64,000 nucleotides of DNA, taken from NCBI GenBank assembly GCA_963717525.1, contig OY970343.1, forward strand, positions 192,001 to 256,000, written 5' to 3'. The notes beneath the pieces are model-generated. The model saw only the letters and a program-made list of their open reading frames with translations, did not search any database and was not told where the DNA came from. Below, one piece after another: positions 14,671 through 55,800 of this stretch. A program made the position numbers and the translations under genes. Origin of the DNA: an uncultured Methanoregulaceae archaeon (GTDB lineage Archaea > Halobacteriota > Methanomicrobia > Methanomicrobiales > Methanospirillaceae). Within the stretch, counting starts at the first letter, position 1; each line of letters starts with the position of its first letter.

Positions 14671-14814
14671 GGGTTCACGCTGGGGGACAAAGAGCAACAC
14701 CAATAAACATTTGAATAATATTGCCCCCATCTAATAGTTATACGGCATTGGCTCCCTGCGCCTTTGGTAATTGATGTACCCTGCATGTAAATCCACGGAT
14801 GATGGAGATTTTGT

Positions 14815-35361: not shown

Positions 35362-36369
35362 TTATCCCCGTGTCTTTTTTGCATAATGGTTCCGGATCAC
35401 GATCGCGACCGCGTAGAACGCCACGACCAGCATCAGGAGGACGAGCGCTGTCCCGTACTTGTTGGTCGAGGAGCCAGGTACATTGGTCGAGAGGATAAAG
35501 AGTTGGTACGGCAGTGCCATCACCGGTTGGAAGAGCGAGGTGGGCAGGAACCGCGTCGAAAAGACGACCGCGACAAACATGATCGGTGCAGTTTCGCCTG
35601 CCGCCCTGCCGATGGAAAGAATTGCGCCGGTTACGATCCCCGGGACTGCGGGTGGGATGACTACGTTACGGATCGTCTGCCACTGGGTTGCCCCAAGCGC
35701 GAGGCTGCCTTCGCGGAGGGATTGCGGAATATTCTTAAGAGACTCTTCCGTGGTACGGATCACAGTTGGCAGCACCATCAGCGCAAGGGTAATCATACCG
35801 GCTAAGAGAGAGACCCCGATGTCAAGGAAGAGCACAAGGAATGCAAAGCCAAAGAGGCCAAAGACGATTGAGGGTGTCCCGTTGAGGAGGTCGACACCGG
35901 TCCGGATCAGTTTTGTGATCCTCCCTTCCCTGGTATATTCGACAAGATAGACCGCAGCCCCGACACCCAAGGGGAGCGCAATCAGGATTGCGCCGGCGAC
36001 AAGGTACAGGGTACCGACAATCGCCGGGAAGATCCCGCCACTCCTGCCAAGATTCGTCGGCGGCTGCGTCAGGAACTCCCACGAGATCGCCGGCAGGCCG
36101 TTTATAATGATATAGCCGAGGATGATCGCAAGGATGGCAAGTACCGCAACAGCGGCCGCAACGACACAGCCAAAGGCGAAAAGCTCGATATGGCGCCGCG
36201 AGATCCGGTTCCTGCCATAATGCCAGACTGCTGCCACAAGGATGATGATGAGCGATGCCTCCCAGAGACTGATGGCAAGGAACAGGAGCGCAATGAAAAC
36301 AAGGACAGCGATCCGGGAATAGGGAAGAAGTTTCTCCTTGATCGCAAGAGAGCCGGGATATGAAGCCAT
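35362..36369 (-). CDS. pstA: Phosphate ABC permease PstA, probably the C-terminal half of a PstC-PstA fusion
   Basis: GGIFPAIVGT, PSIVFGLFG, EGSLALGAT, GRAAGETAP. Confidence 0.9.
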   Translation of the reverse strand: MASYPGSLAIKEKLLPYSRIAVLVFIALLFLAISLWEASLIIILVAAVWHYGRNRISRRHIELFAFGCVVAAAVAVLAILAIILGYIIINGLPAISWEFLTQPPTNLGRSGGIFPAIVGTLYLVAGAILIALPLGVGAAVYLVEYTREGRITKLIRTGVDLLNGTPSIVFGLFGFAFLVLFLDIGVSLLAGMITLALMVLPTVIRTTEESLKNIPQSLREGSLALGATQWQTIRNVVIPPAVPGIVTGAILSIGRAAGETAPIMFVAVVFSTRFLPTSLFQPVMALPYQLFILSTNVPGSSTNKYGTALVLLMLVVAFYAVAIVIRNHYAKKTRG

Positions 36370-37322
36370 GACCGTTTTGCCCTGCCTGCGGTTCTCCCCT
36401 CCCGGAGACGCGAGAGGATAGCAACCGCGCTCAGGTTGATAATGAGCGTGATGATGAGGAGTACCACCGCTACACCGAAGAGCGCATGGTAGTGCTCGCT
36501 TCCGATTGCCACGTCGCCTGTCTCGATACCAAGGGTACCGGTCAGGGTACGGACTGACGAGAGCATGTTCCAGATCGGGTTAGGAATGATCGCAGTATTG
36601 CCGGTCACCATGATGACCGCCATGGTCTCCCCAATAGCACGACCAATACCGAGGATGATCGCCGCCGCGATCCCGGAAAGGGCCGCCGGGACAATGACCC
36701 GGCTTATCGTCTGCCAGCGGGTAGCCCCGGTCGCAAGGGACCCTTCCCGGTATTCGATGGGAACCGAGCTGATCGCATCCTCGGAGACACTGATAATCGT
36801 GGGAAGTGTCATGATCCCAAGAAGAATCGACCCGGCAAGCCAGGTCTGCCCGCTGGGAATGTTGAACGCGATGCGGATGAAGGTGCTCAGGACGATCATA
36901 CCGAAAAACCCGTACACGACCGACGGGATGCCTGCAAGCAGTTCGGTAGCCGGCTTCAGGATGCTTTTTATCCGGGGAGAAGCGAGTTCAGAGATATAGA
37001 TTGCACAGCCAAGAGAAAGCGGGACGGCAAAGACCATGGCGCCTAAAGTAACAAGGAGCGTGTCGATGATGAGAGCGGATATCCCATATTGGGGCACTAC
37101 CTGGGCCGGAGCCCAGGTTGGCCCGAAGAGGAAATTGAGTACTCCCACGGTTTCGAAGATGGAGTAACCGTCCCGGAACAAGAAGAGCAGGATGAATGCA
37201 ACGACGATGACTGCAAAGAAGGCTGTGAATAAGAATACGGACCTGACGAATTTCTCCTTTAGACGGAGGACAATAACCGTGCTACCCGGGGATTTCCCGG
37301 CAGAACATTCAGGATGTGTAAT
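36350..37322 (-). CDS. pstC: Phosphate ABC permease PstC; both ends uncertain
   Basis: ELLAGIPSVVYGFFG, GRAIGETMAV; no stop at the pstA junction; the only in-frame candidate start near the GGAGG is ATT at 37322. Confidence 0.85.
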
Positions 37323-38331
37323 GGTGTAATCGCCTCCCTTTAGGTAAAAAAGTGAGATTTGGGATAATCCCCTTCAGCCTGTTCAGGGCGACATACCCTT
37401 GAGCTACAACAATCTGTTGGCCGGACGGGCTGAGGAGGAAATTGATGTAATCCGCGGTGAGACCGGTGGGCTGACCGTTCGTGATCATATAGAGGTCACG
37501 GTGAATCGGGTAGGTCTTGTCCTTGACGGTTGCAACAGTCGGGGCAATCAGGGTACCGTTTGCCAGCTGGATCGGGAGTGCCTTCACCGTGTTATCGAGG
37601 TAACCAATGGAGATGTACCCGATTGCATTGGGCGTCTGGGCGACTTCCTGGAGGACTGCACCGTTTGAGTTGTCCTCGTGCATGGACATGGAGTCGTTTG
37701 TGTTCAGCATCACGGACTGATCAAAGTAGGTACGGGTACCGGAGGAACTGTCACGGCCAACGAGTACGATCTGGTTGTTAGAGTTTGCCACTCCTGCCCC
37801 GGGGATGGATGACCACGAGGTGATGCTCCCGTTGTAGATCGCCTTGACCTGGTCAAGGTTGATCGATTGGATCGAGTTTGCCGGGTTGACGATGATCGCA
37901 ATGCCATCGTGGGCAATCGTGATGATATTCATGTTGCTGTCCTGTGCCATCTGGGCTGCTGAGACACTGGCAGAACTCATACCGATATCCACTTTCTGGT
38001 TGATGATCGCCTGGATACCCACGCCCGATCCACCGCCGGAGACCTGGATGTTTGCCTCAGGGTGGGCCTGCTCATAGGCATCGGCAACAGCCTGTGCGAT
38101 AGGCAGGACCGTGGTCGAACCGGTCAGGGTCAGGGTCTCAGTCTGGGCAGCAGTTGTTGGGGCGGCAGATCCGGCCTGGGTTGCTGCTGCCGTCGCGGAA
38201 GTAGTTGAAGGAACCGTGGTTGTTGATCCGTTGCTGGTACACCCGGCAACAAGAAGCGATACGATAATCAATGCCGAGAGGCATGCTGTTACCAGGAGAT
38301 ATGAACTCTGTTGGGCTTTCATGGTGTTCAT
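37309..38331 (-). CDS. pstS: Phosphate-binding lipoprotein PstS; true stop probably ~37374
   Basis: Lipobox LVAGC, GSTTVLP, GGGSGVG, GRDSSSGT, YPIHR.LY. Confidence 0.93.
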   Translation of the reverse strand: MNTMKAQQSSYLLVTACLSALIIVSLLVAGCTSNGSTTTVPSTTSATAAATQAGSAAPTTAAQTETLTLTGSTTVLPIAQAVADAYEQAHPEANIQVSGGGSGVGIQAIINQKVDIGMSSASVSAAQMAQDSNMNIITIAHDGIAIIVNPANSIQSINLDQVKAIYNGSITSWSSIPGAGVANSNNQIVLVGRDSSSGTRTYFDQSVMLNTNDSMSMHEDNSNGAVLQEVAQTPNAIGYISIGYLDNTVKALPIQLANGTLIAPTVATVKDKTYPIHRDLYMITNGQPTGLTADYINFLLSPSGQQIVVAQGYVALNRLKGIIPNLTFLPKGRRLHHYTS

Positions 38332-38456
38332 CCATGAGATTATCCCGAGTTCATATACAATTTTTCGACATAGAATATACAGATATATATGCAAACAAGA
38401 CTAACATAGAGTCAAGCATATTTATCATATCACTCTATTCGTGAGGTGGAATTAAG

Positions 38457-39491
38457 ATGGAAATACGCCGGGTACAGATGACCGGGGGGTCATCATTTGT
38501 TGTCACGCTGCCCAAAGACTGGGTCCAGGAGATGCGGATCAAGAAGAACGATCCCGTCGGGTTGATTGCGCAGCCTGACGGTACGCTGCTCGTTACGAAA
38601 AAAACCACCGATGATCCGATCCAGCGGGTCAAGGAGATCGACATCGGGCATATCACGGATCCCTCATTTCTTTTCCGGATCCTGATCGGAACTTACATCA
38701 CCGGGTTTACCGCGATCCGTATCATTTCTAAACAGCGGTTTCCGCCGTTTGTCCGGACCGTTGTCCGGGACTTCACCCAGATGACCATCGGGCAGGAAGT
38801 CGTCGAAGAGACGGACTCCCTCATCATGATAAAAGATCTTCTCAACCCGGCCGAGATGCCGTTTGACAACACCATCAAGAGAATGTTTGTCATTGTCAGG
38901 AACATGCACGAGGATGCCATCGCATCGCTCGAGACGCACAACCAGACCCTCGCCGCCGACGTGATCAACCGGGATATGGACTCGGACCGGCTCAACTGGC
39001 TGATCGCCCGCCAGACCAATATGATCATGCAGAACCCCTCCCTCTCCCGGAAGATGGAGGTCTCGGTCGGTATGGCCATGTACTACCACCTGATCAGCAA
39101 GATCATCGAGCGGATTGGCGATCACGCGGTACGGATTGCCGAGAATGCCCAGCCGGTGCTGGATGCCGACCTCGACCCGAAGATCGTGGCGGCGTTAAAG
39201 AAAGCGAGCGTCCTGTCCATGCAGATCTTTGACAAGAGTATCATCTCGTTTTTCAATGCCGATATCCGTGAGGCCCACAAGACCATCGAGTCGGTCTCGG
39301 CGCTGGAGCACATCTGCGGGGATATCAGCAACATGGCGTTCAGGCAGGAGACGATGGCGGCAATCTCGATCAGCTACATCTCGGAGAGCATCCGCAGGTC
39401 TGGAGAGTACGCCGCGGATATTTGCGAGAACGTGATCAACTATATCGTCGAGGAAGACCGGTCACTCCACCGGAAGCCTTCCGGGAAATAA
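38457..39491 (+). CDS. AbrB/MazE-PhoU phosphate uptake regulator
   Basis: MEIRRVQMTGGSSFVVTLPK.W followed by PhoU repeats (IERIGDHA); divergent from pstS. Confidence 0.9.
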   Translation: MEIRRVQMTGGSSFVVTLPKDWVQEMRIKKNDPVGLIAQPDGTLLVTKKTTDDPIQRVKEIDIGHITDPSFLFRILIGTYITGFTAIRIISKQRFPPFVRTVVRDFTQMTIGQEVVEETDSLIMIKDLLNPAEMPFDNTIKRMFVIVRNMHEDAIASLETHNQTLAADVINRDMDSDRLNWLIARQTNMIMQNPSLSRKMEVSVGMAMYYHLISKIIERIGDHAVRIAENAQPVLDADLDPKIVAALKKASVLSMQIFDKSIISFFNADIREAHKTIESVSALEHICGDISNMAFRQETMAAISISYISESIRRSGEYAADICENVINYIVEEDRSLHRKPSGK

Positions 39492-39562
39492 TCCCCCGCC
39501 GCCGGTTTTTTTTAAAACCTTTAAACCGCATTGCGGGCTCATGGCAATCGTGAATGCGATGG

Positions 39563-40511
39563 TTACTCCTTTTTGGGGCAGGTACAGGACGAATCGCACT
39601 GGCTGCACCCTTCAGGGCAGGGTTCGATATGAATCGTCAATTTTGCCCGGGGATACTCCACGAGCAGATCGGATTCGAGATGATCGGCGAGATCATGGGA
39701 CCGGGTGACCGAGATCTCCCCGGGTACAACAAGGTGGAACTCGATAAAGATATCCGGGCCGGACCGCCGCGACCGGAAGCCGTGGAACCCGTAGGTACTC
39801 GCCCGCATGTGCGCAGATGATCGCCTTGATCCTTTCCTCATCCTGCGGGGGAAGGGAATGGTCGATGATATCGGCAAACGATCGCCTCAGGAGATCGGCG
39901 GCTGCATGCAGGATCACGAGACCGACCCCGATGGCAATGAGCGGGTCCAGAATAGTATAGCCGGTGATATGGATCAGGATCAAACCGGCAAAAACCCCCA
40001 GCGAGGTGTAGATATCCGTCCGCAGGTGCCAGGCGTCACTTTCGAGGGCGATGGACTCGGTTTCCTTTGCCACCTTCATAAGGCGCGAGGAGACATACCA
40101 GTTGGCGAGCACGGATATGCCCATCACCGCGATACCAAAGGAGAGCAACCCGGGTGAAAACTCCTGTATCGGCCCGATAAGCAGCCGCAGCAGGGCTTCG
40201 GCAATAATGATGATCGCCGCACCAAAGATGAGCAGGGCCTCGACGAGACCGGAAACATCCTCGAATTTCCCGTGCCCGAACGAGTGGCCGGCATCGGGAG
40301 GCTCAGCGGATTTTTTCACCGAAAAAAAAGCGATGACCGCCGCGAGCAGGTCCATTGAAGAATGGATGGCCTCGGAGATGATGCTCACCGAGCCGATAGC
40401 AAAACCCACACCGAATTTCAGGATCACAAGGCCGGTGTTGGAGATGACCGAGAGGTGAGCGGTCTGGACTTTCACCCGGTTGGATTCTGCCTGTCTGGGA
40501 TCCTGGTTCAT
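39563..40511 (-). CDS. Cation diffusion facilitator (FieF-like); +1 frameshift at ~39794
   Basis: SEAIHS..D, HSFGHGKFE, DAWHLRTD; C-terminal SHDLADHLE..IHIEP in the next frame. Confidence 0.9.
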
Positions 40512-40576
40512 GTACATTCTCTCATGGTGGCCTGCGATACAGAAGATCAATTCAAAAAACGACCGGCGCCGGCATG

Positions 40577-40949: not shown

Positions 40950-42139
40950 TCATGCACCTCCAGTGACGAATTTCATGATAGTGAACAGGAAGTCGCCAAA
41001 AAGGACGGCAGTAATAAGTCCCGCCGTGATCGGGAGGATGAACGGGACTGCATAGGAGATCCAGACGTTTCCTGCTTTTTTGTAGATCCCCAACTCTTTT
41101 TCAAACTCTTCGGGGTGTTCCCGGAGATCCTTGGTATACACCCTGCCCTCATCGGAACGCATCCGGCGCAGGGAATCCCAGAACCCTATAAATTTCCGCC
41201 CGATGTTGCCGTTTTTCTCCTCGACAAAATCTTCCATCACAAAGCCCCAGGCCTGCTGAATGTTGTCTCCTTTCACAGGGAAGCCGAAGAACATGTACTG
41301 GAGCGGGGCACGGTTCTTCTTTACTGTATTGATGATGAAAATACCCACTGGCGCCACCAGGTTGAGGATCAACGCATTGATCAGAACTGAGAACGACAGG
41401 AAATATCCCCCTAAAGGAGGGGTGCTAAGAAGAGGGATTATGGGAAATGTTGGTATGCAGAAGGCAATAAAGATGAGTGCCCACGCGTCGGCACCGCCGA
41501 ACAGGTGCATCTGCCCGAAGATATAAAAGACGCCACAGAATATGGCAGTAAATGCCATATAGATGCCGAACCCACCCCAGCCGCCGCTGCCAATCATATA
41601 GAACGACGCAATCGCGAGAATGATAACCACGAGCACGAAATACCAGCGGCTCAGCACCTCTTCAACATTCGATTCCCGCCGGGCGTCTTTTTTCGCCTGT
41701 TTTGCCTTGAGCCTGCGTTCAGGCTGTTTTGTGAATTCCCGGTAGGAGACATACCCGATTAATCCGGCGAACATCACGTACCATGGTATGAGCTGGGTCT
41801 CGGGCAGTTTTCCCGTGGAAATGGCCGGTATAATAAACCAGGATATGGCGGGGAGGGCAAGGACGACTGCCAGGTACGGGAGCCGGAACGGGTCCCGGCC
41901 TCGTGGTTGTCGAGGTAATCAGCATACAGGAAACTGGCTATCAGGGCGATATAACCGACAATGAGGCTGATATTTCCGGTCTGCTGGTAGAAGAATACCA
42001 TGCTCGCGGCGATCCCGACAATGAGCATCGGGTACCACGTCCTGAAAGGAACGCGCCGGTCCCTGATATCCAGGTACGATGCATAGATAAGGGTAACAAG
42101 AACGGCAACGGCCGAGATCACCATCGGGTAAAATATCAT
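40950..42139 (-). CDS. A24 prepilin/prearchaellin peptidase (FlaK/PibD-like); one-base deletion at ~41895
   Basis: [12 protein letters not shown] catalytic Asp, FGGADA GxGD-like motif, [14 protein letters not shown]-terminus; the two ORFs join into about 396 aa. Confidence 0.88.
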
Positions 42140-42396
42140 AAGCAGGTTTACCGTTATATCTCCTACAACTTATGCGTGGCGATGACCCCCTGTACAGGGG
42201 CGCGTTCTGGATTGGGGGGCGGGAAATCTCCCGGTCATGGGACGGAGAGGGATCAGGTGTCCGGTTATCCGCGTGGAGATACCTTTGCAAATATATAATA
42301 CACCGGTTGTGAATACATGATTGAGGGTAATTTAAGAACGATTCGGGGAAGAAGCCTCATGTTCCCGCCCCGGATTGTACAAACGAGGATTATTTC

Positions 42397-43008
42397 ATGG
42401 ATCTGCAGGAGCTTCTGGACAATATCCTGAAGGGATCGAAGTACCTGGGCACGTTTACCCTTGCCGATATGCTCATGTTTGCATCATCCCGTCACCTGCA
42501 TGCCCTTGCCGTGGCAAAAGAGGAAAACCGCCAGTTTTACCTTGCTTTCCTTAACGGTGAACCTGAAGGGGCAATCTATATAGATACCGAGGGAGCGCTT
42601 TTTGGCGACAATGCGGTCGTATATATCCGTGAGGGCAGGCAGTATGTCCTCTGCGATGTGAAACAGGAGATCATCGATGCCCTTGCCATGGGATGCCGGA
42701 TCTTTGAAAAGGGGCATATCCGGAAAAATATTACCTATTCGGTGCCGGAAATAGGGAAAAAAAGCAAGGGGATCGGGGTGGTCAGCGTGGCCGTCCTCCG
42801 GGAAAAAAACCCGCAGAACGGCGTGCGTGTATCTATCAGGAAAGACGGCAAGATCGTGGGCAGCGATGTTACCACAGGTAACGGGGAGGTCAGTTTCCGG
42901 GTGATGTACGGGGACTATACCTGTCTTGTTCAGGACCGGTCCCAGGTCGTGACGCATTTTACGATAACCTTTGACGAATCCCATACGGCCCATATCCTGG
43001 ATCTTTAA
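42397..43008 (+). CDS. Hypothetical protein: PATAN/DUF2226-like N-terminus plus beta-sandwich C-terminus
   Basis: FTLADML...FYLAFLNGE..GAIY...FGDNAV; C-terminal TTGNGEVSF..YGDY. Confidence 0.55.
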   Translation: MDLQELLDNILKGSKYLGTFTLADMLMFASSRHLHALAVAKEENRQFYLAFLNGEPEGAIYIDTEGALFGDNAVVYIREGRQYVLCDVKQEIIDALAMGCRIFEKGHIRKNITYSVPEIGKKSKGIGVVSVAVLREKNPQNGVRVSIRKDGKIVGSDVTTGNGEVSFRVMYGDYTCLVQDRSQVVTHFTITFDESHTAHILDL

Positions 43009-43118
43009 TGACCGTCTGGACCTGATGTGGCGTTTCATCTTTTTTTTACTTACCGTCGGAACTCCCGCCCGGAACCAAGACGAAATCCTTTAATTATATA
43101 ATAGCAGACTGATCGCTC

Positions 43119-44228
43119 ATGAAGATCGGACGAGAAGACTTCGAGGCGCTCATCAAGGGTGAGAAGGACATCACCCCTTATATCGAGCTTGACACAGTGG
43201 CAGGTTCCTACTCGGTTTTCGGGGTGAAAACGGCGAGCAACCCCAATTACCTGATAAAAGCCATCTACGAGATGTATGAGGGACACCTGAACAAGAAACT
43301 GGCTGTGAAGGCAGTACGTAAGCTGTTCCGGTCGGTTGGCCTGGGATCCCTTGGCCTGTACAATCTCCTGAAAAAATTCGGTATCGAACTGTCACCTGCA
43401 GATTTCCTCCTTTTAGTCTTCAAGCTCCAGCACCAGCAGGGATGGGGTGCCCCGTTCGAACTCATCGAGCAGAGTGAGAAGAGGATTGTCCTGCGCACAA
43501 AACATACCTTCGAGTCGGAGATCCTAAAAGACTGGAAGATACCGGTCTGCGGAGTTCACATGGGATGGATCGAAGGGGTAATGATGGCTGTAACCGGTAA
43601 GAACTGGTACTGTCTTGAACGCAAGTGCGTGGCAAACGGCGACGACTGCTGCGAGTTTGTTGTCGACCAGGTAGACCCCAGCTGGAAGTTCAAGGCACAG
43701 GCCGTGGTCAAAGGCGATTCTGCAATTACCGAATTTATCGACCACCGGCCTGTGGAGGGGACGATCAAGCTGATCGATGACCCGGTGGTTATGATGCCGA
43801 GGTTTGTCTTCACGTCGATGATGAACTCCCTTAAAAAGACGATGGGCGAAATGCCGGCGGGCGGGGTGAACTACCGGGCCTACATGGATATGGGTAAGGA
43901 GAACGTCGAACACTACAAGAAGATGGGTGTCACCCAGCCAAACACGCTCTCTGATATGGCGTTTACCTTTTATTCCCAGATGGGCTGGTTCCACCTGGTC
44001 AAGAGCGAATGGAACGAGGCGAAGAAGGAAAAGACCATTACTCTGGAACATACGGTTGAATCCGAGGCGTTCGGGAATACCGGAAAGAATGTCTGCTACT
44101 GTACGGCCGGTCTCCTCGCCGGGATTATCGAGGGATCGTTTGGGATCAAGGTACAGTGCCGTGAAATCAAATGCCGTTCGAAGGGAGACGAGTTCTGCGT
44201 CTTTACGGTTACCAACAAGGCTGAATAA
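43119..44228 (+). CDS. Tandem V4R (4-vinyl reductase) domain protein
   Basis: Two repeats: QGWG...CGVHMGWIEG...ERKCVANGDDCCEF and MGW...CYCTAGLLAG...EIKCRSKGDEFCVF. Confidence 0.85.
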   Translation: MKIGREDFEALIKGEKDITPYIELDTVAGSYSVFGVKTASNPNYLIKAIYEMYEGHLNKKLAVKAVRKLFRSVGLGSLGLYNLLKKFGIELSPADFLLLVFKLQHQQGWGAPFELIEQSEKRIVLRTKHTFESEILKDWKIPVCGVHMGWIEGVMMAVTGKNWYCLERKCVANGDDCCEFVVDQVDPSWKFKAQAVVKGDSAITEFIDHRPVEGTIKLIDDPVVMMPRFVFTSMMNSLKKTMGEMPAGGVNYRAYMDMGKENVEHYKKMGVTQPNTLSDMAFTFYSQMGWFHLVKSEWNEAKKEKTITLEHTVESEAFGNTGKNVCYCTAGLLAGIIEGSFGIKVQCREIKCRSKGDEFCVFTVTNKAE

Positions 44229-44467
44229 ACCGCGGAGGCAGCTCATGTGCGGCCTACACCGGCCTGCTCCCTGTTTTTCCCGCCCCTTGTTGCAGTCTTC
44301 CTGCCCGGGGATGGGAGAGACAGATTTTTTTGACTCTTTTTCTCATTGGGAGAGATGCACCGGGTGACAAACAGGAGCCGCGAAAGATTTTTATAAAAAA
44401 GAAAAATCTATCTTTAAATACTCTTATCTCGTATTGTTAAAACGGAATATTCATCCCGGTGAAAGCC

Positions 44468-45259
44468 ATGGCCTCGCCAGTCCAGATCCTGATTGTGGAA
44501 GATGATGAGATCATCTCCAACCTCATTGGCGTGATCCTTGAAAAGAAAGGATATGCCGTTGCCGGCAAGGTTACGACTGGCGAAGATGCCATTATGAAGG
44601 CTGCAGAATATCAGCCGGATCTTGTCCTCATGGATATCAGTCTTGCCGGCACGCTGGATGGCATTACCGCAGCGCAATACGTTTACTCTATCTTTCGCAT
44701 CCCGGTGATCTTTCTGACCGGCCAGTGCGACGATTCAATACTCGCCCGGGCAAAGGCTGCAGAACCGTACGGATTCATTCTCAAGCCTTTTACCTCAAAC
44801 GAGATCGTATCAAACATCGAGATCGCCTTATACAACCACAGCATGCGCAAACGGTATTTTGACAAGGCCGCCCTGTGGGATATGAAGAAGATCATGGCTG
44901 CCCTCGAATCGGTGATCATAACAGACATCAAAGGCCGTATCATTTTCTTAAACCCGTATTCCTGCAGGCTGCTGGATGTCCTGGAGAAGGATGCGCTGGC
45001 ACAACCTCTCCGGAAGGTGCTAATCCTCGTAAACAAGCAGACCGGGGAACGGATCAACGACCCGGCACTAGATGTACTCCGTGACAGAATTGCAGTCAGT
45101 TATGATCTCAATACGGTCGTTGTGTCGCTCGCGAACAAGAAACGGTTCGTCGCTCTCACGGCACGCCCGGTGAAAGACGACAAGAACGACATGATCGGTG
45201 TGTCAGTTCAGATTCGTGAAAAGACCCTGACCGAGATCAAGATGGCAGAAAAGGTCTGA
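44468..45259 (+). CDS. REC-PAS response regulator
   Basis: ILIVEDD, LMDISLAG.LDG, PVIFLT, ILKPF; PAS ITDIKGRIIFLNP. Confidence 0.88.
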   Translation: MASPVQILIVEDDEIISNLIGVILEKKGYAVAGKVTTGEDAIMKAAEYQPDLVLMDISLAGTLDGITAAQYVYSIFRIPVIFLTGQCDDSILARAKAAEPYGFILKPFTSNEIVSNIEIALYNHSMRKRYFDKAALWDMKKIMAALESVIITDIKGRIIFLNPYSCRLLDVLEKDALAQPLRKVLILVNKQTGERINDPALDVLRDRIAVSYDLNTVVVSLANKKRFVALTARPVKDDKNDMIGVSVQIREKTLTEIKMAEKV

Positions 45260-45307
45260 TACAATCCCCGTTTTCTCATCCTGAAATAAAAATTATAAAA
45301 AGGATAG

Positions 45308-46108
45308 TTATTTTTTATCTGATTTCTTTTTGAAGAGTGCCTTTGAGAACCGGTCGATAAAGCCTTCACGGGGCACCTTGGCCGGGGTGTCCTCCTTATA
45401 CGCCACGCCAATGAGATCTGACGCAATCCGGTGGATTGCCTTTGATGCGGGTGAATCCGGGTAGGTAACTACAATGGGAGAACGCGCGGCTGCGGCTCTT
45501 CTCACGTTAGTATCCTCCGGGATAATTCCAAGAACTTTTACCCCGAGTACTTTTTCCATCTTACGGGAGATGACGTCGCTCTTGTCCTGGTCGACACGGT
45601 TGATGATGGATCCAAGGACATGTCCTCCGACAACTTCTGTCAGGATCTTCGTCTTGAGTGCATCGACAATAGACGACAATTCGGGATTGACCACGAGGAT
45701 AACTTCGTCGGCCACGGCAAGCGGTACGACACCATCCTTGCTGATCCCGGCAGGTGCATCGATCAAAAGGAATTCGCACCTTTTTACAATTTCAGAGAGA
45801 ACGTCCCGGATCTTGTCCGGATCTGCCTGCTGGAAGCCCTGGAGAGAGATGCCGCTCGGGATGACCTTGAGTCCGCCCGGTCCCGGGTAGATCCCATCCT
45901 CGATATTATTTTTTCCGGCAAGAATTTCGTGCAGGGTTACCGGTGCATCCTGCAATCCCAGAATCAGGCCGACATTTGCCATGCCGATATCGGCATCCAT
46001 AAGGTAGGTTTCCTTTCCCAGTTTGGCAAGCATCGTTCCGAGATTGACAGAAACGGTGGTTTTACCTGTACCTCCTTTTCCGGATGCAATTGTGTATACC
46101 TTAACCAT
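45308..46108 (-). CDS. minD: Archaeal MinD-family ATPase
   Basis: Deviant Walker A SGKGGTGKTT, DADIGMAN, IDAPAG; amphipathic C-terminus GFIDRFSKALF. Confidence 0.93.
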   Translation of the reverse strand: MVKVYTIASGKGGTGKTTVSVNLGTMLAKLGKETYLMDADIGMANVGLILGLQDAPVTLHEILAGKNNIEDGIYPGPGGLKVIPSGISLQGFQQADPDKIRDVLSEIVKRCEFLLIDAPAGISKDGVVPLAVADEVILVVNPELSSIVDALKTKILTEVVGGHVLGSIINRVDQDKSDVISRKMEKVLGVKVLGIIPEDTNVRRAAAARSPIVVTYPDSPASKAIHRIASDLIGVAYKEDTPAKVPREGFIDRFSKALFKKKSDKK

Positions 46109-46194
46109 CAAACACCTGTTGTCGTCCTGCTTATTATTATCCTCTGCAATTATACGTATTGTGGAATATTTTATTTATGTGTTTCATATTCGTG

Positions 46195-46764
46195 TTATAT
46201 CCACCAGTTTAAAATATCTTTTGTCTCTCGTACCATATCAGGATCGGGTTCCTGCACGAGAAGATCCTTTGTCTTAGCTATTCCCACCAGAAAGGATCCC
46301 TTGTGCTCAAAGCCAAACAGCATGACTCCTGGGGGTCGAGGCTGCACATTTTCCGCATACATCCCGGCGTATCGTGCAACCGCATCAGCGGAAGGTGTTT
46401 TTTGAGATGATGCGAGCAGCAGGCCATCGGAAGTGGCAAGGGTAATTTCGTCCAGTGAGTATTTTTCCGCAAGAGCCGCAAGACTCGCCCTGAGATCCGC
46501 ACTTCCCTTGAGACAGTCGATCTCCTTTGGCCGGGGAGCGGATACAAAGACCGTATCCTGATCGAAAGAGCCGTCCGGGGCGTTTAACGGGATTTTCTGT
46601 ACTCTCAGGGGAGTCCGGGACGGGTCGAGGGAAATTTTACGGGGATGGCCCTTTGCCCCGGACCGTAATTTTATGAGGACGAGTGCGGCTGCAATGCAAA
46701 AAATGACTGCAATAGCCACGCCAAGGAGCAGAATTGTATCATCGATACCAAAGAGAATCGACAT
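46195..46764 (-). CDS. Membrane-anchored hypothetical protein with a Roadblock-like C-terminus
   Basis: N-terminal TM; ITLATSDGLLLASS resembles the Roadblock strand/DG motif. Confidence 0.6.
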   Translation of the reverse strand: MSILFGIDDTILLLGVAIAVIFCIAAALVLIKLRSGAKGHPRKISLDPSRTPLRVQKIPLNAPDGSFDQDTVFVSAPRPKEIDCLKGSADLRASLAALAEKYSLDEITLATSDGLLLASSQKTPSADAVARYAGMYAENVQPRPPGVMLFGFEHKGSFLVGIAKTKDLLVQEPDPDMVRETKDILNWWI

Positions 46765-46785
46765 CTTCCCGGCACCTTCAGGTTT

Positions 46786-47495
46786 TTAGTCCTTGTCCAT
46801 CAGGTGGTCAAGGCGGAGATGTTTTACCATCGTTTTGCATTCATCCCTGATCTTATCGGTTACCTGGTCGAGGTTCATTGAATTCAGTGTGTCCAGATCA
46901 TTCTCAAAATCTGTTTTTCCGGTCTCTTTTACCGGAGCTTCCGGTTCTTTTGGCCCCGGTCTTTTATCTGCCCGGAATGATGGAGGGGGAACGGTGACAG
47001 GATTTTTCGGGCCAGCGAGGGACCGGGGGGTCTTTTCCGGTGAACGTGCCACAAGTTTTGATACTTCTTCGCTTGGGGGGGCCGGGGTTGCTCCCTGTGA
47101 CGGGCTGGTTTTTTTTGCCATTACGTGGGGAGCTGTGGGTGGCGGGGGATGTACCGCTTTCTGGGGGGGGGAGGTTCGCGGGGGGCTTTTATGACCTTCT
47201 CGGACTTGTTGAATTCCAATGATAACTGAATCTGAGCCTCATCCAGGGTCGAGAGCGCAGCATCAATGGCCTCGCCCGCATTGGACATAAGGAGGCTTTC
47301 GAGTGCGGCATCACCCTTGGACGTGGTGTACTCTGCAAGAATACACTTTCCAGATTTCAGCACAAGTGTGCAGATGCCCTCCCGGCATGAAATGCTGCAG
47401 ATCCCGGAGAAACGGCTCCGCTCAAGTTCAGCGAGGAGGTCTCCGGCCTTCTGGTTCTTCTGGATCTCGCGGAATGTACCGCGGGGCAGTTGCAT
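46786..47495 (-). CDS. DUF2226/PATAN-like protein with Pro-rich linker; frameshift in the poly-C tracts at ~47160-47190
   Basis: MQLPRG...RFSGICSI...LVLKSGKCILAE...GDAAL...QIQLSLEFN; continues into ORF 46786-47121. Confidence 0.7.
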
Positions 47496-48102
47496 GATCT
47501 CTCTAATGATTGCATTCCAGTATATAGTTTCTTTTCTGGCACCCGGAATTGTTATTCCCCCTGTAACCAGAGGTACAAATACCAGCCCCTGTCAGTAACC
47601 GGCCTTTTTACCTGGGCACTACATGGTCCTGTTGAAACTCTTCGCTATCGACATCGTTATTGGCGGAGAGGACCCTGCCTGAAAACGGTGTGAACTGGTC
47701 TTACCATTTTCTGCTAAAAAAAATCCGGGGAAATATTTTTCGGGACCGGAAAGAAGAGGTCACCTCATATCTGGCACGTGGATGTACATCCCGCTCTTTT
47801 TTTGCTGCCGACAGGTCTGCCCACCCGGATCGCGATTTTTCCGGGGAAATCCCGGCCCGCTGTTTTTGCAGGACAGTCTCTTGCCAGGCTTTTTTATTTC
47901 AACGCGTCAGGTTTGCACTGACTTTTCGCTCATAGGAGTTTTCTTGGGTGCTCTCATCCCTGCCTTTGTGGGGCCGGGGCTCTAATGGCTTTATTTTTTG
48001 TTTTTGTGGATTATACCAGCACATTCTCCGGAAAAATACCCCAATCTATTAATAGAAAAAAGACAAGAAAGTCACAATTATTAAATGGGTGAGATTGTGG
48101 TG

Positions 48103-48450
48103 ATGCTCAAGCCGTTGTTAGAGGAGTTTCTGAGAGTTGAAGGGGTATCTGCTGCAGTGGTGGTAGGAAGAGACGGGTTCGTGATCGAAAGCGCAGTGTC
48201 CGGCAAGGTAGATATCGAGGCGCTTGGCGCTATGGCCTCAACCGGCCTTGGAACATCCGAAGCGATGGGGAATACTTTGGGGAAAGGCGAGCTCTCCCAG
48301 ATGCTTGTTGAACTGGAAAAAGGGCCTATTATTCTGGCCCCCCTGTCTGCGGATGAACTGATTGCGCTGGTGGCAGATACAACAGCAAATATCGGCAGGA
48401 TTCGTTATGAATTAAAGAAGAACAAGGAAAGAATCGTCGCGGCTCTCTAG
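48103..48450 (+). CDS. Roadblock/LC7 (MglB-like) protein
   Basis: VEGVSAAVVVGRDGFVIE...EALGAMAS...QMLVELEKG...ANIGRIRYEL. Confidence 0.9.
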   Translation: MLKPLLEEFLRVEGVSAAVVVGRDGFVIESAVSGKVDIEALGAMASTGLGTSEAMGNTLGKGELSQMLVELEKGPIILAPLSADELIALVADTTANIGRIRYELKKNKERIVAAL

Positions 48451-48475
48451 ATCCATTATTTATCGGGCTATTTTT

Positions 48476-49217
48476 ATGAAACTGCCGGCAGGGACACAGG
48501 GGGGTGTCGTTCTCGATCCGAAGAATGAGGATATGGTTGAGCACCTCAGGACATTCCGGGGTGCTATCGAGATTGATACCGGCCGGGGAAAGGGATTTAT
48601 CCTCATGCGTAACGGCGAACTGGTTGCTGCATACTTCGAGGACAAAGACGGTGTTTACCGGGGGGGCGCTGCGGTACGATGTATCATGGCCACCCCGGAG
48701 AGTAACAGGAGCGAGCACCAGCAGAATTTTGTCATGAGATCTGTACAATGAGGAGGATTACGCAGAAGCGCTGGACATGTGCACTCAGGACAGTCTCTTT
48801 ATCGGGAATGCTTTGCCGGTGCATGACGCAGCTCCTTATCCTCCAAAGAGCCCCGGTGCATCCAGGTCTCCTTCCTGCATCGTAAATGAATCAACCCTTG
48901 GCAAGATCATGAGTCAGCCGGGGGTTGTTGCAGTTTCTGCATTCTATGAAGGATTTCCGGTCCTCTCCCTGGGAGAAGCGGATTTTGAGCATGTGGCAGC
49001 TAGGGCCGAGGATTTTCTTCGGGCCGGAACCGGGATAGCCCAGGATATGAACCTCGGTCAGCCCGGCCAGATAATCCTCGAAACAGCAGAGAACAAATTT
49101 ATTATCGTTCCCTGCGGAGACCTTTTTCTCTGTATTATCACCCGTGCAGATGCCCAGCTCGGTCTCATGCGGGTCCTGATCAGGAGCATCCAGAACGAAG
49201 TGGGGCGTGAAACATGA
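48476..49217 (+). CDS. DUF2226/PATAN-like plus Roadblock fusion; +1 frameshift at ~48741
   Basis: MKLPAG...FRGAIEI...GFILMRNGELVAA...GGAAV; C-terminal PGVVAVSAFYEGF...QIILET...AQLGLMR. Confidence 0.75.
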
Positions 49218-49337
49218 CCGGCCCGGTGCGGTTTATAGGGGAAGGTTTTTCCAGCATTGTGTCAGAGAATACATATAGTCCGAGATAAGAAGAATCTTTT
49301 ATAAAAATACCGGGAGCGGTTAACACCAGACAGGGGG

Positions 49338-51778
49338 ATGTTCAGATTGAAATCACATGATGATGATGAAGTCCATGACGATATAAGCACCCTTCTTAAA
49401 AAAATCCGGGGTATACAGGCACCGGAAGACGAATCGGCCGGGCCTGTTGTGGCACCACCCCCTGAAAAGAAGCCCGGGGGGAGGAATCTGATGCAGGAAG
49501 CGCTGGTGATTTTTCCGCTCTTATAAAAAAACTTGGCGTGAATAACATCGGTACACCTTTTGGGGCTGAGCCGGAACCTGCCCCCGCCAAGGATACAGCT
49601 CCCCCCGGTAAATCCCCCCTTCAAGGGGAAAAACCCGACAGTCTTTGATGACCTGCTTGAAGATCTTCCTCCATCAAAACCGTTCCGGAATCTCCTGCGC
49701 TGAGCAGCGATGATGTACGCGTAGCGCTGGGTAAGATCATGGGACAGACTGAACCTGCCCCTGCGCCCTCCACGCCTCCCGGAGAAAAACCCGTACCTCC
49801 GGCAACTGAACCCCCTAAGGAACAAACAGTTGAAATCGTTGAAGAAGATCCCCACGCACACCGGGCTTCTGAATTCTTCAAGAAAAAAAAGGCAGCAAAA
49901 AAAGGAACCGAACCCTTACCTGTTGAAGATATCGCGGTGAGCGATACGGACGAGCGGATCATCTCCGCAGACCAGATTTCCGAGTTTTCGGGACTGATCC
50001 TCCCCAAGGGAGCCACCTTCCAGATTGACGAGATTAACCTTCATGGCAGGGTAAATGCTTTCGGGAGCACCGGCACCGGTACCCTCCCCCCGGAACTTGC
50101 TGATATCTGGAAGCGGGAATTTTCGACCGCCGAATTCAAGGATTTCGAATCCGAGCTGACCCTTGAAAAGGAAAAACCAGACCAGGGTACGGCAAAGAAG
50201 TCCAGATTTGCCGCTCTTTTCAGTGCCATACGATCAGAAACCGTCGACTATGATCCCAAACTGCATGGACCTTTGGTAGATCTCTCCTTTGATTCAAAAC
50301 CCGGTGTCGAAGTGATGGAGATGTACCCGGTAAATGAACCCTTTGCCTATGTCCGGGTCATCTATGACCATGCTACCCATGAATATACCTATCAGGTTAT
50401 CGAACCTGTCCTATCAGAACCTGAAAAAGACCTGCTGAAAGAATTAAAAGAGCGCCTCTTTGAGACGCTTGATATCAATACCAAGGATATATCAAAGGAC
50501 GAAGCCCGGATTCAGCTCAGGCATTCTGTCGATGATATCCTTGCCGATTTTGGGATAAAGCTCAACCCGGTCCAGCGTGAGAAGATCCTCTATAATATGC
50601 ATAAGGATTTCCTGGGGGACGGCCTGATCGATGCGATCATGCATGACAAGTACATCGAGGATATCTCCTGCGACGGGGTCAACACACCTCTCTTTGCCTT
50701 CCATGCCAGTTACGAATCGATGAAGACCACTCTGATGTACCACAATGCAGAGGAGCTCGACTCGTTTGTCACAAAACTCGCCCAGCGTGCCGGCAAGTAC
50801 ATCTCTATTGCCGAACCTATCCTCGATGCCACCATGACCGATGGCTCCCGTATCCAGATGACCCTCGGGCAGGAAGTGACCGCCCATGGATCCACCTTCA
50901 CCATCCGTAAGTTCAAGGACGAACCGATCACCCCGACCGATCTCATCGAGTGGCACACGTTTGCCCCCCTTTCGGTTGCATACATCTGGCTTGCGGTCGA
51001 GAATGGGAAATCTGCAATCTTCGCCGGGGGAACGGCATCCGGTAAGACCACGTCGTTAAACGCGATCTCCCTTTTCATCCCCCCGATGGCGAAGATTGTC
51101 AGCCTCGAAGATACCCGTGAAGTGAAGCTCCCCCACCCCAACTGGATCCCTAGTGTAACGCGGGACTCATTTGATACGGCAGGACGCGGGGAGATTAACA
51201 TGTACGAACTCCTCCGTGCCGCGATGCGGCAGCGGCCTGAGTATATCATTGTCGGGGAAGTCCGTGGCAAGGAATGCCAGACGCTCTTCCAGGCGATGAG
51301 CACCGGCCATGTCACGTACTCCACGATCCACGCGGATTCGGTATCGAGTGTCGTCCACCGTATCGAGAACCCCCCTATGGATGTTCCGCGGAACATGCTC
51401 TCGGCACTCGATATCGTCTGTATCCAGGTACAGGCCCGGATGGGTGGAAAACGGATCCGGCGGAACAAACAGATTGTCGAGATCCTCGATATCGACCCGC
51501 GGACCAACGAACTGATCACAAACGAGGTCTTCAAGTGGCGGTCGGCGACCGATGAGATCACTTACTCGGGGAAGTCCTATATCCTTGAAGATATCATGGA
51601 GTCGCGGGGCTGGAACGAAAACCGGATGCGGGAAGAACTCAAACGCCGGCAGGAAGTGCTTGAGTGGATGCGCCTCAAGAAGATCCGGCATTACAAGGAT
51701 GTTGCCAAGATCCTTATCTCGTATTACCGGGAACCCGAAGTGGTTGTCGAGCGTGTAAGGAAGGACCTGTATGAATAG
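49338..51778 (+). CDS. Type IV pilus/T2SS assembly ATPase with long acidic, Pro-rich N-terminus (homopolymer frameshifts at ~49480-49680)
   Basis: IEDISCDG, TFTIRKF, GGTASGKTT, LEDTRE, MRQRPEYIIVGEVRG, AMSTGH..YSTIHA. Confidence 0.92.
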
Positions 51779-52694
51779 CTTTGAACGATTCTGTTTCAAC
51801 CTTCTGGGCATGCGGATGAAGGCGAGGCGTGAGCAGTACTCCCAGCTCCGGAACGACCTCATCTCTGCCCGGCTCAAAACCCCGTTTGAGGTGTATATCT
51901 CCACGGCAGTGGTCAGCTCCATCATCGTAGGTCTGGTCGCTGCGCTCGGATTGGGTCTTGTTACCTGGTTTTTAAAGATCCCCAACCTTATTCACTACAA
52001 AGGGGAGGTTCCGGCAACGATGCTCTTCCTCAACCAGTACGGTCTTTTGCTGGGGACCATTTTTGCCGTCGTCTTCTCCCTGCTGGTATTCGGAGGGATA
52101 ACGTATGCGATCTTTATTGTGTATCCCTCGGTCGAAGCCGGAAACCGGCGCCGGAATATCGATGCAAGCCTTCCCTATGCGATCAACTATATTACATCCA
52201 TGTCCACCGCCGGTATTACCCCGGCAGAGATCTTCCGCCTGCTGGGGGACAGCCCGATCTATGGTGAGAGCTCCGTGGAAGCACGGTATATCGCACGGGA
52301 GATCGACATCTTCGGGCGGGATCTTATTGATTCGCTCAGGATTGTCTCTTCGAGTACTCCCTCCCATCGGATGAAGGAGTTTTTACAGGGTGCGATGGCC
52401 AGTATTTCCAGTGGCGGTAACCTCACGGACTATTTCCGTACCAAGGCGAACCAGTACGCTCTGGAGAACCGCCAAACCCAGAAACTATTCCTGGATACGC
52501 TTGCGCTGATCTCAGAATCGTACGTGACGGCGATGGTGGCCGGCACGCTTTTTTTGATCATCCTTCAGTCGATCATGTCCGTCATTGGCGGAGATTCAAA
52601 GCCGATATTTCTCTATGTCGTCATCTATCTCATGATCCCCTTCGGCACAATGATGTTTATTATCATGATCAGTTCCATGACCCCGGAGACCTGA
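51771..52694 (+). CDS. T2SS F / PilC (TadC-like) membrane platform protein 1
   Basis: IDASLPYAINY...GRDLIDSL...TPS...SGG; overlaps the ATPase stop. Confidence 0.88.
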   Translation: MNSFERFCFNLLGMRMKARREQYSQLRNDLISARLKTPFEVYISTAVVSSIIVGLVAALGLGLVTWFLKIPNLIHYKGEVPATMLFLNQYGLLLGTIFAVVFSLLVFGGITYAIFIVYPSVEAGNRRRNIDASLPYAINYITSMSTAGITPAEIFRLLGDSPIYGESSVEARYIAREIDIFGRDLIDSLRIVSSSTPSHRMKEFLQGAMASISSGGNLTDYFRTKANQYALENRQTQKLFLDTLALISESYVTAMVAGTLFLIILQSIMSVIGGDSKPIFLYVVIYLMIPFGTMMFIIMISSMTPET

Positions 52695-52695
52695 T

Positions 52696-53742
52696 ATGGC
52701 ATTTAACGACAGATTAAAGGGCATTATCGGAAAAGAGAAGGATCCCCGCGAACAACCCCCCCCACTCCCCCGCAACGAGTTGGATTCGGTTGAAAAAGAA
52801 CTGAATGATATCACCGGGAAACTGGAGGCTGAACGGAAGAGCCAAGAAGGAATGGCACGGTTCTTAAAGCACCCGCTCAAAGTTCTGGTAGAGAAACCCG
52901 AAAATATCCTTATTGTCTGCATCCCGCTCTCATTGATCGTCTTTATCGGCGGATTTGTCTCGATGGTGAAGATGTATGGTATCCAGGTGCTTTTTAACTC
53001 AACCGTTATCGATGATTTTGCGATACTGGCGATCCTTATCTCTATAATTCCCGTTTCAGTTCTCGATTTCAGGGAACAGACCCGAGTAAAAAATCTCGAG
53101 AACGCACTCCCCAACTTCTTCCGTGACCTGGCGGGTATGAATGATTCCGGTATGACCCTGCCCAACGCCGTTCACCTTGTCGCTGGCGCAGAATATGGTA
53201 CCCTGACCCCCCATATACGGAAACTGGACAACGAGATGTCGTGGGGCGTCGGTTTCGTGGAGGGTATGTACCGGTTCGGGAAGGGCTTGGGCACACCGTT
53301 AGCCAACCGGAGTGTCGATCTGATCGCTAAGGCCAGTAAAGCCGGTGGGGATATCAGCGAAGTGCTCCGTGCAGCAGCAAATGATACTTTCGAGGTGGTC
53401 AACCTTGCACAGGAACGCCGGAATAACATGTTTATCTACGTGATCATCGTGATAGTCTCGTGGGCAGTTTTTATGTTTGTTATCGCGGTCCTCGTGAGTT
53501 CCTTTTTAAGTACCATGGCCACCGCGGGCACGGCGGCACAGATGACGGCAGCGAGCAGCAAGTTCATGGGACGCATCGATCTCCCGGCGTACAAACGGTT
53601 GTTCACCCATGCAGCGATGATCCAGGGCTTTTTTTCCGGGCTCTGCGCCGGCCAGATGGGTGAAGGGCGGGTTGTTGCCGGTCTCAAATATTCGGCAATT
53701 ATGCTGATCATATCGTGGGTTGTCTTCCGCTTCTTCATCTGA
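52696..53742 (+). CDS. T2SS F / PilC (TadC-like) membrane platform protein 2
   Basis: LPNFFRDLA...GMTLP...YGTLT...AGGDISEVL...QGFFSGL.AGQMGEG. Confidence 0.88.
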   Translation: MAFNDRLKGIIGKEKDPREQPPPLPRNELDSVEKELNDITGKLEAERKSQEGMARFLKHPLKVLVEKPENILIVCIPLSLIVFIGGFVSMVKMYGIQVLFNSTVIDDFAILAILISIIPVSVLDFREQTRVKNLENALPNFFRDLAGMNDSGMTLPNAVHLVAGAEYGTLTPHIRKLDNEMSWGVGFVEGMYRFGKGLGTPLANRSVDLIAKASKAGGDISEVLRAAANDTFEVVNLAQERRNNMFIYVIIVIVSWAVFMFVIAVLVSSFLSTMATAGTAAQMTAASSKFMGRIDLPAYKRLFTHAAMIQGFFSGLCAGQMGEGRVVAGLKYSAIMLIISWVVFRFFI

Positions 53743-54308: not shown

Positions 54309-55758
54309 ATGAGTATGCCGCTCATGGTCGTGGGGACTTCGTCGCATGTGGGAAAAAGCATAACGGTGGCGGCGATCTGCCGGTGCCTGGTGCACCGGGG
54401 AATAAGCGTAGCACCGTTCAAGTCCCAGAACATGAGCCTGAACTCGTTTGTGACCGCAGATGGGGGCGAAATCGGGATAGCACAGGCAATGCAGGCCTGG
54501 GCTGCCCGGCTCTCCCCTACGACCGACATGAACCCGGTGCTGCTCAAGCCGAAAGGTGACTGCGTCTCGCAGGTGGTGCTTTTCGGCCATCCCTATAAGG
54601 ACGTCCCCATCGCGGAGTACTATGCAGAAACGCCCTTCCTTCTATCAGAGGCGGTGGCCGCGTTTGGGCGGCTTATGCAGGAGTACGGCCAGGTTGTTGC
54701 CGAAGGTGCCGGGGGAGCAGCCGAGGTCAATCTGTATGACCGTGATATCGCAAATACGCTGCTTGCAGAGGCCCTCAAAATTCCCCTGATCCTCGTGGCT
54801 GATATTGAGAGAGGGGGTGTATTTGCCCAGGTCTATGGTACCCTGAAACTGCTGCCGGAACCGATCCGGCCACTCGTCCGGGGCATCATTATCAATAAAT
54901 TCCGGGGCGATCCTGCCATCTTTGAAAGCGGAATCCGGATCATCGAGGATCTCACCGGGATTCCGGTGCTCGGCGTTGTGCCGTACTTCTCGATCCCTCT
55001 TCCCAGCGAAGACTCCCTCTCGATCGCAGACAAGGTTCACCGGGATCTCCCGGTCCGTATCGCGGTGATCCGTTTCCCCCATGTATCCAATTTCACGGAC
55101 TTCGAGCTCCTCGAACAGTACGCATCGGTGGAGTACGTGCCCTGCGGGGTGCCCCTTGCCGGCTACGACTGCATCATTCTTCCCGGCACCAAGAACACGA
55201 TCGACGATCTTGCTGCGCTGAGAGCAGCCGGCATGGACCGCGAACTGCTGGCTGCACAGGAAAACGGGGTTCCCGTCATCGGTATCTGCGGGGGGTACCA
55301 GATGCTCGGGAAGACCCTCGTGGACGAGGGGTTTGAGTCCAAAGCCGGCGTGTATCCCGGTCTTGGCCTGCTCGACTGCACCACCCGGTTCGCCTCGTAC
55401 TCCAAGAACACCACGCAGGTTCGCCGCCGGGCAGCACCGGTGCCCCCGATCCTGTCATCCATGGGTGAGGTGACCGGCTGACGAGATCCACATGGGGGTG
55501 ACGAAACCGGGTCTCGATCGCGAGGCATTCTCCGGTGACGGCCGGGTAAACGCTGACGGCCTTGTCTTTGGTACCTACATGCATGGGCTCTTCCTCAATC
55601 CGGCCGCAGCAAATGCGCTGCTCGCCTACTTGTCCGGGAAAAAAGGTCTGCCGTACACCCCGATTCCTGCCGAAGGTTCGGATCCCTACGACATGCTTGC
55701 GTGCCTGTTCGAGGAACATGTCGACATGGAAGCGATCATAACCATTCTGAACGAATAA
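54309..55758 (+). CDS. cobQ: Cobyric acid synthase; +1 frameshift at ~55479
   Basis: [44 protein letters not shown](Y)EIHMG and GTYMHGLF lie in the next frame. Confidence 0.94.
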
Positions 55759-55800
55759 CCGGAGCCAATTCAGGCAGGGGCGAAAAAGCAGATCGCCTTT

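Follow-up and report, generated by a model that had tools for sequence, protein, structure and literature searches.

The 64,000-nucleotide window analysed here, from contig OY970343.1 of an uncultured Methanoregulaceae archaeon (genome G000, single contig, completeness 87%), contains between positions 40950 and 53742 a type IV pilus (T4P) locus in which genes of the pilus motor stand among genes for MinD, Roadblock, PATAN-like and V4R proteins. We propose, with a probability of about 0.5, that a V4R protein provides the input to a pair of Roadblock domains, that these work with a GTPase of the MglA type, encoded in trans, and alongside it with MinD, and that PATAN-like adaptors carry the output to PilB and PilC, gating adhesion pili. 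The locus may well be built of two interleaved units, a pilus assembly core of the PilB3/PilC type and an older signalling cassette. The latter would comprise the V4R input, the Roadblock pair (protein 48103 and the Roadblock half of the fusion protein D3), the adaptors D2 and D3, and MinD together with a partner anchored in the membrane. In the model, a redox or ligand state would be sensed by the V4R protein, which in turn would act on the Roadblock pair; the Roadblocks would tune the MglA-type GTPase (G000:C1:1640443-1640973), and possibly MinD too; and the PATAN-like domains would relay the state to PilB/PilC, determining where or when adhesion pili form. In most of the order, and outside it, the input would be a ferredoxin and a V4R protein together with an MvhAG-like [NiFe]-hydrogenase. 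The domains, the gene order and the patterns of presence and absence are observations; from them we infer, at even odds, each interaction, the direction of signalling and the pilus as target.

The original prediction described a system without a GTPase, in which MinD stands in for MglA. The genome-wide search that it suggested finds two MglA-family genes in G000, so that the term GTPase-less is wrong for this genome, while it is true that the window itself holds neither MglA nor a pilin. The first gene is an intact orphan of 176 residues with the G1 to G4 motifs GAFGAGKST, TTTIALDYG, GTPGQERF and NKCD, the same set as in MglA Groups 2-5 according to PMC4316618, whose table includes short, uncoupled MglA proteins of Group 4 from Methanoregula and Methanoculleus. 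The second gene joins a KaiC-like N-terminus to an MglA-type GTPase domain (C1:62870-64186, L052), and long KaiC-like/GTPase forms similar to it occur in many relatives. The short MglA gene lies 1.4 Mb from the Roadblock cassette, beyond the four genes within which a pair counts as coupled, and no cassette gene is found within 1.5 kb of MglA in 29 MglA loci. Nevertheless, the two tend to be absent together. Among 111 genomes of the order (G000 and others that are at least 92% complete), a Roadblock of the 48103 type occurs in 79; 68 hold Roadblock and MglA, 11 Roadblock only, 3 MglA only and 29 neither, that is, Roadblock is present in 68 of the 71 MglA carriers and MglA is absent from 29 of the 32 Roadblock-less genomes. 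Such joint loss of unlinked genes would point to a shared function, and the GTPase encoded in trans is probably used by the cassette. MinD accompanies Roadblock in 78 of the 79 genomes and is also found in 7 Roadblock-less ones. A GTPase-free version exists in three relatives (G027, G032 and G055, 99% complete), which keep the cassette and give no full-length MglA-family match. The predicted complex of MglA, Roadblock, the D3 Roadblock domain and GTP scored 0.29 against a mark of 0.32, with no controls folded, and is counted neither way.

A second Roadblock gene opens the group at 13681-15462 of the window, followed by two REC-domain genes and located beside rpoH. As a partner of MglA it was judged less likely, because a paralog of this kind persists in five genomes that lack both the 48103-type Roadblock and MglA. 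In relatives, the second Roadblock locus also holds a second D2-transmembrane (TM) protein-MinD run or MinD, which G000 lacks. Extra pairs of Roadblock and D3-like genes occur at other genomic sites or, duplicated in inverted orientation, by the peptidase (L274, L276, L277, L278; L130, L137, L141, L143, L147).

The hub of the cassette is the Roadblock/MglB-like protein (48103..48450, plus strand), which matches Robl_LC7 of Pfam with E 7e-17 and is 66-99% identical across the order. D3 (48476..49217, plus) is a PATAN/DUF2226-like domain fused to a Roadblock domain; its C-terminus matches Robl_LC7 with E 4e-7, and the model of an intact ortholog (L045) has the Roadblock fold (Z 17.5, with 111 residues superposed at an rmsd of 1.7). 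Two of three postulated Roadblock-like domains are thus secured. The third is that of the protein at 46195..46764 (minus), with one predicted TM helix and a degenerate, probably Roadblock-like C-domain; just one of 18 orthologs matches Robl_LC7, weakly (E 0.012), and the hhalign probability is 6%, while a published table labels the family, arCOG03412, as Roadblock (PMC4858521).

The three proteins held to share a DUF2226/PATAN-like pattern divide in a similar manner. D2 (46786..47495, minus), which consists of the N-domain, a disordered linker and a short conserved C-terminal helix, is homologous to D3 in its N-domain (hhalign 94%), while D1 (42397..43008, plus) is marginal against the two (56% and 0.7%), and its model resembles the other PATAN-like N-domains in the order of strands and helices. 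None reaches a Pfam cut-off: with PF14332 (PATAN/DUF4388) the best score is about 15 bits versus 25, and PF09987 (DUF2226) matches nowhere in the genome. A profile built from D2 and D3 together picks up a genuine DUF2226 protein with E 1.7e-16, and sub-cut-off DUF4388 matches are present in 11 of the 57 profile matches scanned, which were chosen from 150 listed. In the Atlas, D1 and D2 share unnamed clusters, with DUF2226 and PatA_N as leads at 0.83-0.89 (0.83-0.86 for D1). The fold-search lists for D1 and D3 are filled by their second domains, the PATAN-like N-domains being unplaced there. The term PATAN-like is weakly indicated, as a fair lead and not as family membership. Other proteins carry the D2/D3-type N-domain in fusion with a TIR or a Fic domain (P0031, P0052). 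MinD (45308..46108, minus), of the MinD/FleN family, scores 315 bits with TIGR01969 (cut-off 202) and has the signature lysine P-loop. Its amphipathic tail, already remarked on in the original prediction, is a conserved C-terminal helix, FIDRFSKALFK, whose hydrophobic moment (0.75) is the highest anywhere in the protein. In a quick tree MinD falls close to the paralog from the second Roadblock locus, at a support of just 82-88, and no origin is claimed.

Gene order is conserved around the pilus motor, as the proposal of a Roadblock, PATAN-like, MinD and V4R set there would have it. The counts come from 80 metagenome loci, the best 80 of 414, and the scan returned close relatives only. D2, MinD, the double V4R gene and D1 are present in all 27 loci with upstream room, and D3 and PilB in all 38 with downstream room; D3 reads as one continuous fusion in 71 of the 78 related loci. 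V4R is a plausible input. The other suggested input, REC, fares less well: the REC-PAS gene (44459..45259, plus), with its phospho-Asp in place, is present but optional (17 of the 27), and the TM protein is found in 23. Every gene of the orthologous locus in Methanoregula boonei has its entry in Table S4 of Makarova 2016 (PMC4858521), where three are labelled Roadblock and others MinD, 4VR and REC-PAS, without interpretation; the accessible text says just that MinD and Roadblock genes are frequent in T4P loci. A literature search covering few subscription papers or preprint supplements found no publication that describes the cassette as a whole, the exchange of V4R proteins or the joint loss of MglA, and the accessible parts of PMC3087415 and PMC13580544 do not discuss the cassette.

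The candidate sensor of the window is a double V4R protein (43119..44228, plus), specific to its family, with two Pfam V4R matches and MsvR-like cysteine sets; its close homologs bear the NCBI name Methanoregula. The Cys/His sets are kept in 107-108 of 108 homologs. MsvR is a redox sensor with a cysteine-bearing V4R domain (PMC3729527); the window protein matches the NCBIfam MsvR model with E 3e-20 over profile positions 173-236 only (73 bits versus a cut-off of 220), and is not a full-length MsvR with DNA-binding and V4R domains. A Cache-domain insertion occurs in 12 of 120 listed homologs, copies at the same locus included; it is an sCache_3 inside the second V4R domain (L261:3973-5500; L262:4221-5750; P0249). 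In one relative (G126, L264), the peptidase, D1 and the double V4R gene stay and MglA is kept, with no Roadblock, MinD or PilB within about 11 kb downstream.

Elsewhere the position of the sensor is taken by a different arrangement, in order a ferredoxin, a single V4R-like gene, two [NiFe]-hydrogenase subunits and then the Roadblock. Among 75 hydrogenase-V4R loci, the ferredoxin is adjacent in 73 of 73 and the small subunit in 71 of 73; the Roadblock follows the large subunit in 63 of 64, the lone miss (L152) having one on inspection, and D3 comes next in 63 of 63. The NiFe L1/L2 active-site motifs are intact in 66 of 66. The subunits are closest to MvhA and MvhG (E 5e-114 and 3e-71 to chains of PDB 5odc). 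The large subunit occurs in 0 of 25 genomes of the window genus but in all 13 genomes from four other families, and in a draw of 61 genomes the hydrogenase-linked V4R is found in 26 and the double V4R in 20, with no overlap, their union being exactly the 46 Roadblock genomes. In a family of another order the Roadblock is present in 10 of 10 genomes, and all six main loci fetched show the run ferredoxin-V4R-hydrogenase-Roadblock-D3-MinD. Because it occurs in another order, the hydrogenase-linked form is probably the ancestral input, and the window family probably lost the hydrogenase and carries the double V4R in its place. No mvhD or hdr gene was recognised among the listed neighbours of the hydrogenase loci, where no search was aimed at them. 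In Methanoculleus the hydrogenase pair is filed as F420-non-reducing hydrogenase and mvhD lies beside hdr (Anderson 2009, PMC2686161), so that use of mvhD in trans by the locus hydrogenase is possible.

The pilus core is that of the original prediction in gene content and in strand layout. It contains the prepilin peptidase (40950..42139, minus; A24 and Arc_PepC_II in Pfam), the PilB3-type assembly ATPase (49338..51778, plus) and the two PilC/TadC platform proteins (51771..52694 and 52696..53742, plus), both with TM helices and T2SSF matches over the Pfam cut-off. The Roadblock, the fusion gene, the ATPase and both pilC genes run in one direction, divergent from the D2-TM-MinD run. The ATPase has Walker motifs and a T2SSE match over the cut-off, while PilB3_C (26 bits) and PilB3_N (19.5 bits) stay just below theirs (27). 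It is not an archaellum motor (FlaI, 416 bits versus a cut-off of 550), no archaellum genes were recognised in the block, and both platform genes are TadC-type. Neither a Pilin_N match nor a hit of a pilin-like motif scan lies in the window, and the genome-wide pilin search that had been recommended gives 10 Pilin_N matches outside it, 9 above the cut-off. The pilins of G000 cluster at C1:1141178-1154700, and four further PilB/FlaI-type ATPases are found at C1:49913, 734602, 1151188 and 2087963. Scans for sigma-70 promoters and terminators, models unsuited to archaea, stay at about chance level. D1, a PATAN/DUF2226-like N-domain followed by a transthyretin-like beta-sandwich (Z 12.9 for this C-domain in the fold search; model pLDDT 85), has no predicted TM helix and looks cytoplasmic. 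It is the most constant companion of PilB here, present in 94 of the 111 genomes of the order and spread wider than the Roadblock, and PilB is near it in 11 of 12 loci fetched, Roadblock-less genomes included. In three orthologs (L034, L046, L047) the PATAN-like N-domain is duplicated in tandem, giving about 325 residues. The peptidase, PilB, the two PilC and pilins in trans probably form an ordinary euryarchaeal PilB3/PilC-type core with D1 as constant cytoplasmic accessory.

Several observations weigh against the proposed mechanism. Of the 29 genomes lacking both Roadblock and MglA, 21 belong to a single family, so related genomes do not count as independent cases; outside that family, MglA is absent from 8 of 11 Roadblock-less genomes and MinD from 4 of 11. 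In addition, 11 genomes hold the Roadblock without a short MglA. The exchange of sensors has exceptions outside the draw, G010 with a Roadblock and no double V4R, and G126 with the reverse; the two V4R protein types share no significant pairwise similarity, and the exchange is for that reason described as a replacement and not as shown descent. The PATAN/DUF2226 matches remain below Pfam cut-offs. As regards the link to the pilus, which is the weakest step of the explanation, 54 hydrogenase loci have downstream room, and many of these rows are Methanoculleus, so that the counts reflect sampling. Downstream pilus genes are absent in 30 (27 with MinD upstream, 3 with neither) and present in 24; they are also absent within the 18 kb fetched in the six loci outside the order, and the pilus core persists without Roadblock (L170, L171, L173, L180).

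A different account draws on these observations and gives the cassette no part in pilus control: it would regulate or position something else, originally the hydrogenase, maybe an MvhAG feeding heterodisulfide reductase, with adjacency arising by insertion or shared regulation. The scarcity of pilus genes near many hydrogenase loci and outside the order, the intact core in Roadblock-less genomes, MvhA and MvhG as best structural relatives and the filing of the Methanoculleus genes (PMC2686161) all agree with it. However, the hydrogenase was lost in the window family, yet Roadblock, D3, D2 and MinD stayed in the pilus locus in every close relative with room to show them. Moreover, the cassette runs on one strand with D1 and PilB in the 24 loci and does so in two different gene orders, 15 passing into D2, MinD, D1 and PilB, and 9 going as Roadblock-D3-D1-PilB without MinD. 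D1 resembles the N-domains of the cassette itself, and mvhD is reported beside hdr and not at the hydrogenase-V4R locus (PMC2686161). Hence we regard this account as rather unlikely. An output to the pilus is plausible, since a PATAN domain binds PilB1 and PilC in Synechocystis (10.1101/2021.06.11.447907). Within pilus control, the nucleotide switch could be MinD in place of MglA, the Roadblocks acting on MinD and pilus polarity being set without a GTPase, as first supposed. MinD is nearly constant in Roadblock genomes and is part of the cassette outside the order, the D2-TM-MinD unit recurs beside either Roadblock locus, G027, G032 and G055 do without a full-length MglA, and ParA is reported to displace MglA in some MglA-MglB systems (bioRxiv 10.64898/2026.10.19.760177). 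On the other hand, the window genome has two MglA-family genes, the distribution of the short MglA is nearly nested within that of the Roadblock though the genes are unlinked, 7 Roadblock-less genomes retain MinD while the 9 loci just mentioned do without it, and motors of the PilB3 type are tied to adhesion, as in Haloferax (PMC6491452). A replacement of MglA by MinD is consequently improbable.

The locus might also be in decay, its split genes being true pseudogenes, and four of the twelve genes do carry frameshifts when compared with a 94%-identical metagenome contig that has whole frames: the peptidase, D2, D3 and the N-terminus of the ATPase. The breaks are, however, one-base indels (at about 41892, 47170 and 48741, and at 49482-49683), several of them inside homopolymer runs, and the identity of flanking proteins to the intact relative remains high. 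The peptidase is a single gene, whole in relatives, and the conserved part of the ATPase (49739-51778) is open behind its variable N-terminus. A housekeeping gene, cobQ (window 54309-55760), is also frameshifted, at 55480, and whole in the same contig; together with the odd tails of the phosphate permease and cation-efflux genes (window 36102-40550), this suggests many indels in the assembly. The breaks in the four genes are probably assembly errors, and decay is very improbable. In a complete relative, L031, it is pilC1 that is split (5453-6376).

To our knowledge, little is known of what governs the timing of adhesion pilus formation in archaea. A wider reading, which we offer tentatively and hold to be doubtful as a whole, is that of a modular V4R-Roadblock-GTPase/MinD switch in hydrogenotrophic methanogens, coupling H2 or redox state to surface attachment: a dedicated MvhAG-like hydrogenase with ferredoxin and V4R would be the ancestral sensor, swapped in the window family for a double V4R responding to thiol redox or a Cache ligand, with the PATAN-like output to PilB kept. 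These methanogens live in syntrophy, and an input of H2 or redox would offer an explanation of how they could regulate attachment to hydrogen-producing partners; hydrogenase genes counted as metabolic Mvh would then need a second look, and a sensory role would be added for Mvh-type hydrogenase. In the literature covered, no assigned role was found for small GTPases of methanogens. If correct, the reading would give a first function to the orphan Group 4 MglA of methanogens and would bring a small GTPase together with a Roadblock dimer and a protein of the V4R/Bet3 fold, as in eukaryotic TRAPP-type modules, a parallel drawn in part from PMC10933270. The co-occurrence profiles name candidate partners (Roadblock, MglA, V4R, D1 and PilB) in genera that can be cultivated.

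Among known systems, the cassette may by analogy work like an MglA/MglB/PATAN pilus regulator, yet its GTPase is uncoupled and its PATAN-like domains lie under the Pfam threshold. With MglA/MglB of Myxococcus xanthus it shares the Roadblock fold (Z 14.4 to MglB in the fold search), a small GTPase with the G3 motif GTPGQ, and PATAN genes, which occur near some mglA/mglB loci (PMC4316618). It differs in that the GTPase is unlinked, has neither the Group 1 arginine finger nor TVPGQ, and has V4R, MinD and hydrogenase as partners in the archaeal cassette; Wuichet and Sogaard-Andersen (PMC4316618) found no conserved neighbours for the Group 4 MglA of methanogens and tested no function. Cyanobacterial regulators of the PatA type (PixE/PixG PATAN) likewise have PATAN domains beside pilus motor genes, whereas here the PF14332 match is sub-threshold and the domain is fused to a Roadblock or a beta-sandwich and not to REC. 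The MvhAG/VhuAG hydrogenases, pertinent to the relatives only and not to G000, correspond in their similarity to 5odc and intact L1/L2 motifs; those of the cassette fall under the Vhu cut-offs and have genes for V4R, a small ferredoxin, MinD and Roadblocks as their neighbours. MsvR (PMC3729527) has a V4R domain with conserved cysteines, as does the window protein, which in contrast has two such domains, no match to the MsvR N-terminus and sometimes a Cache insert. The closest counterpart of the pilus core is PilB3/PilC3 of Haloferax volcanii (clade 2 T4P), with PilB3_N/C, two PilC, pilins in trans and an association with FleN/MinD (PMC4858521, PMC6491452). Table S4 of PMC4858521 links the D1 family to the same clade, naming D1 a surface protein, whereas D1 here would be cytoplasmic; and what distinguishes the window locus from that of Haloferax is the Roadblock/PATAN-like/V4R cassette inserted into it.

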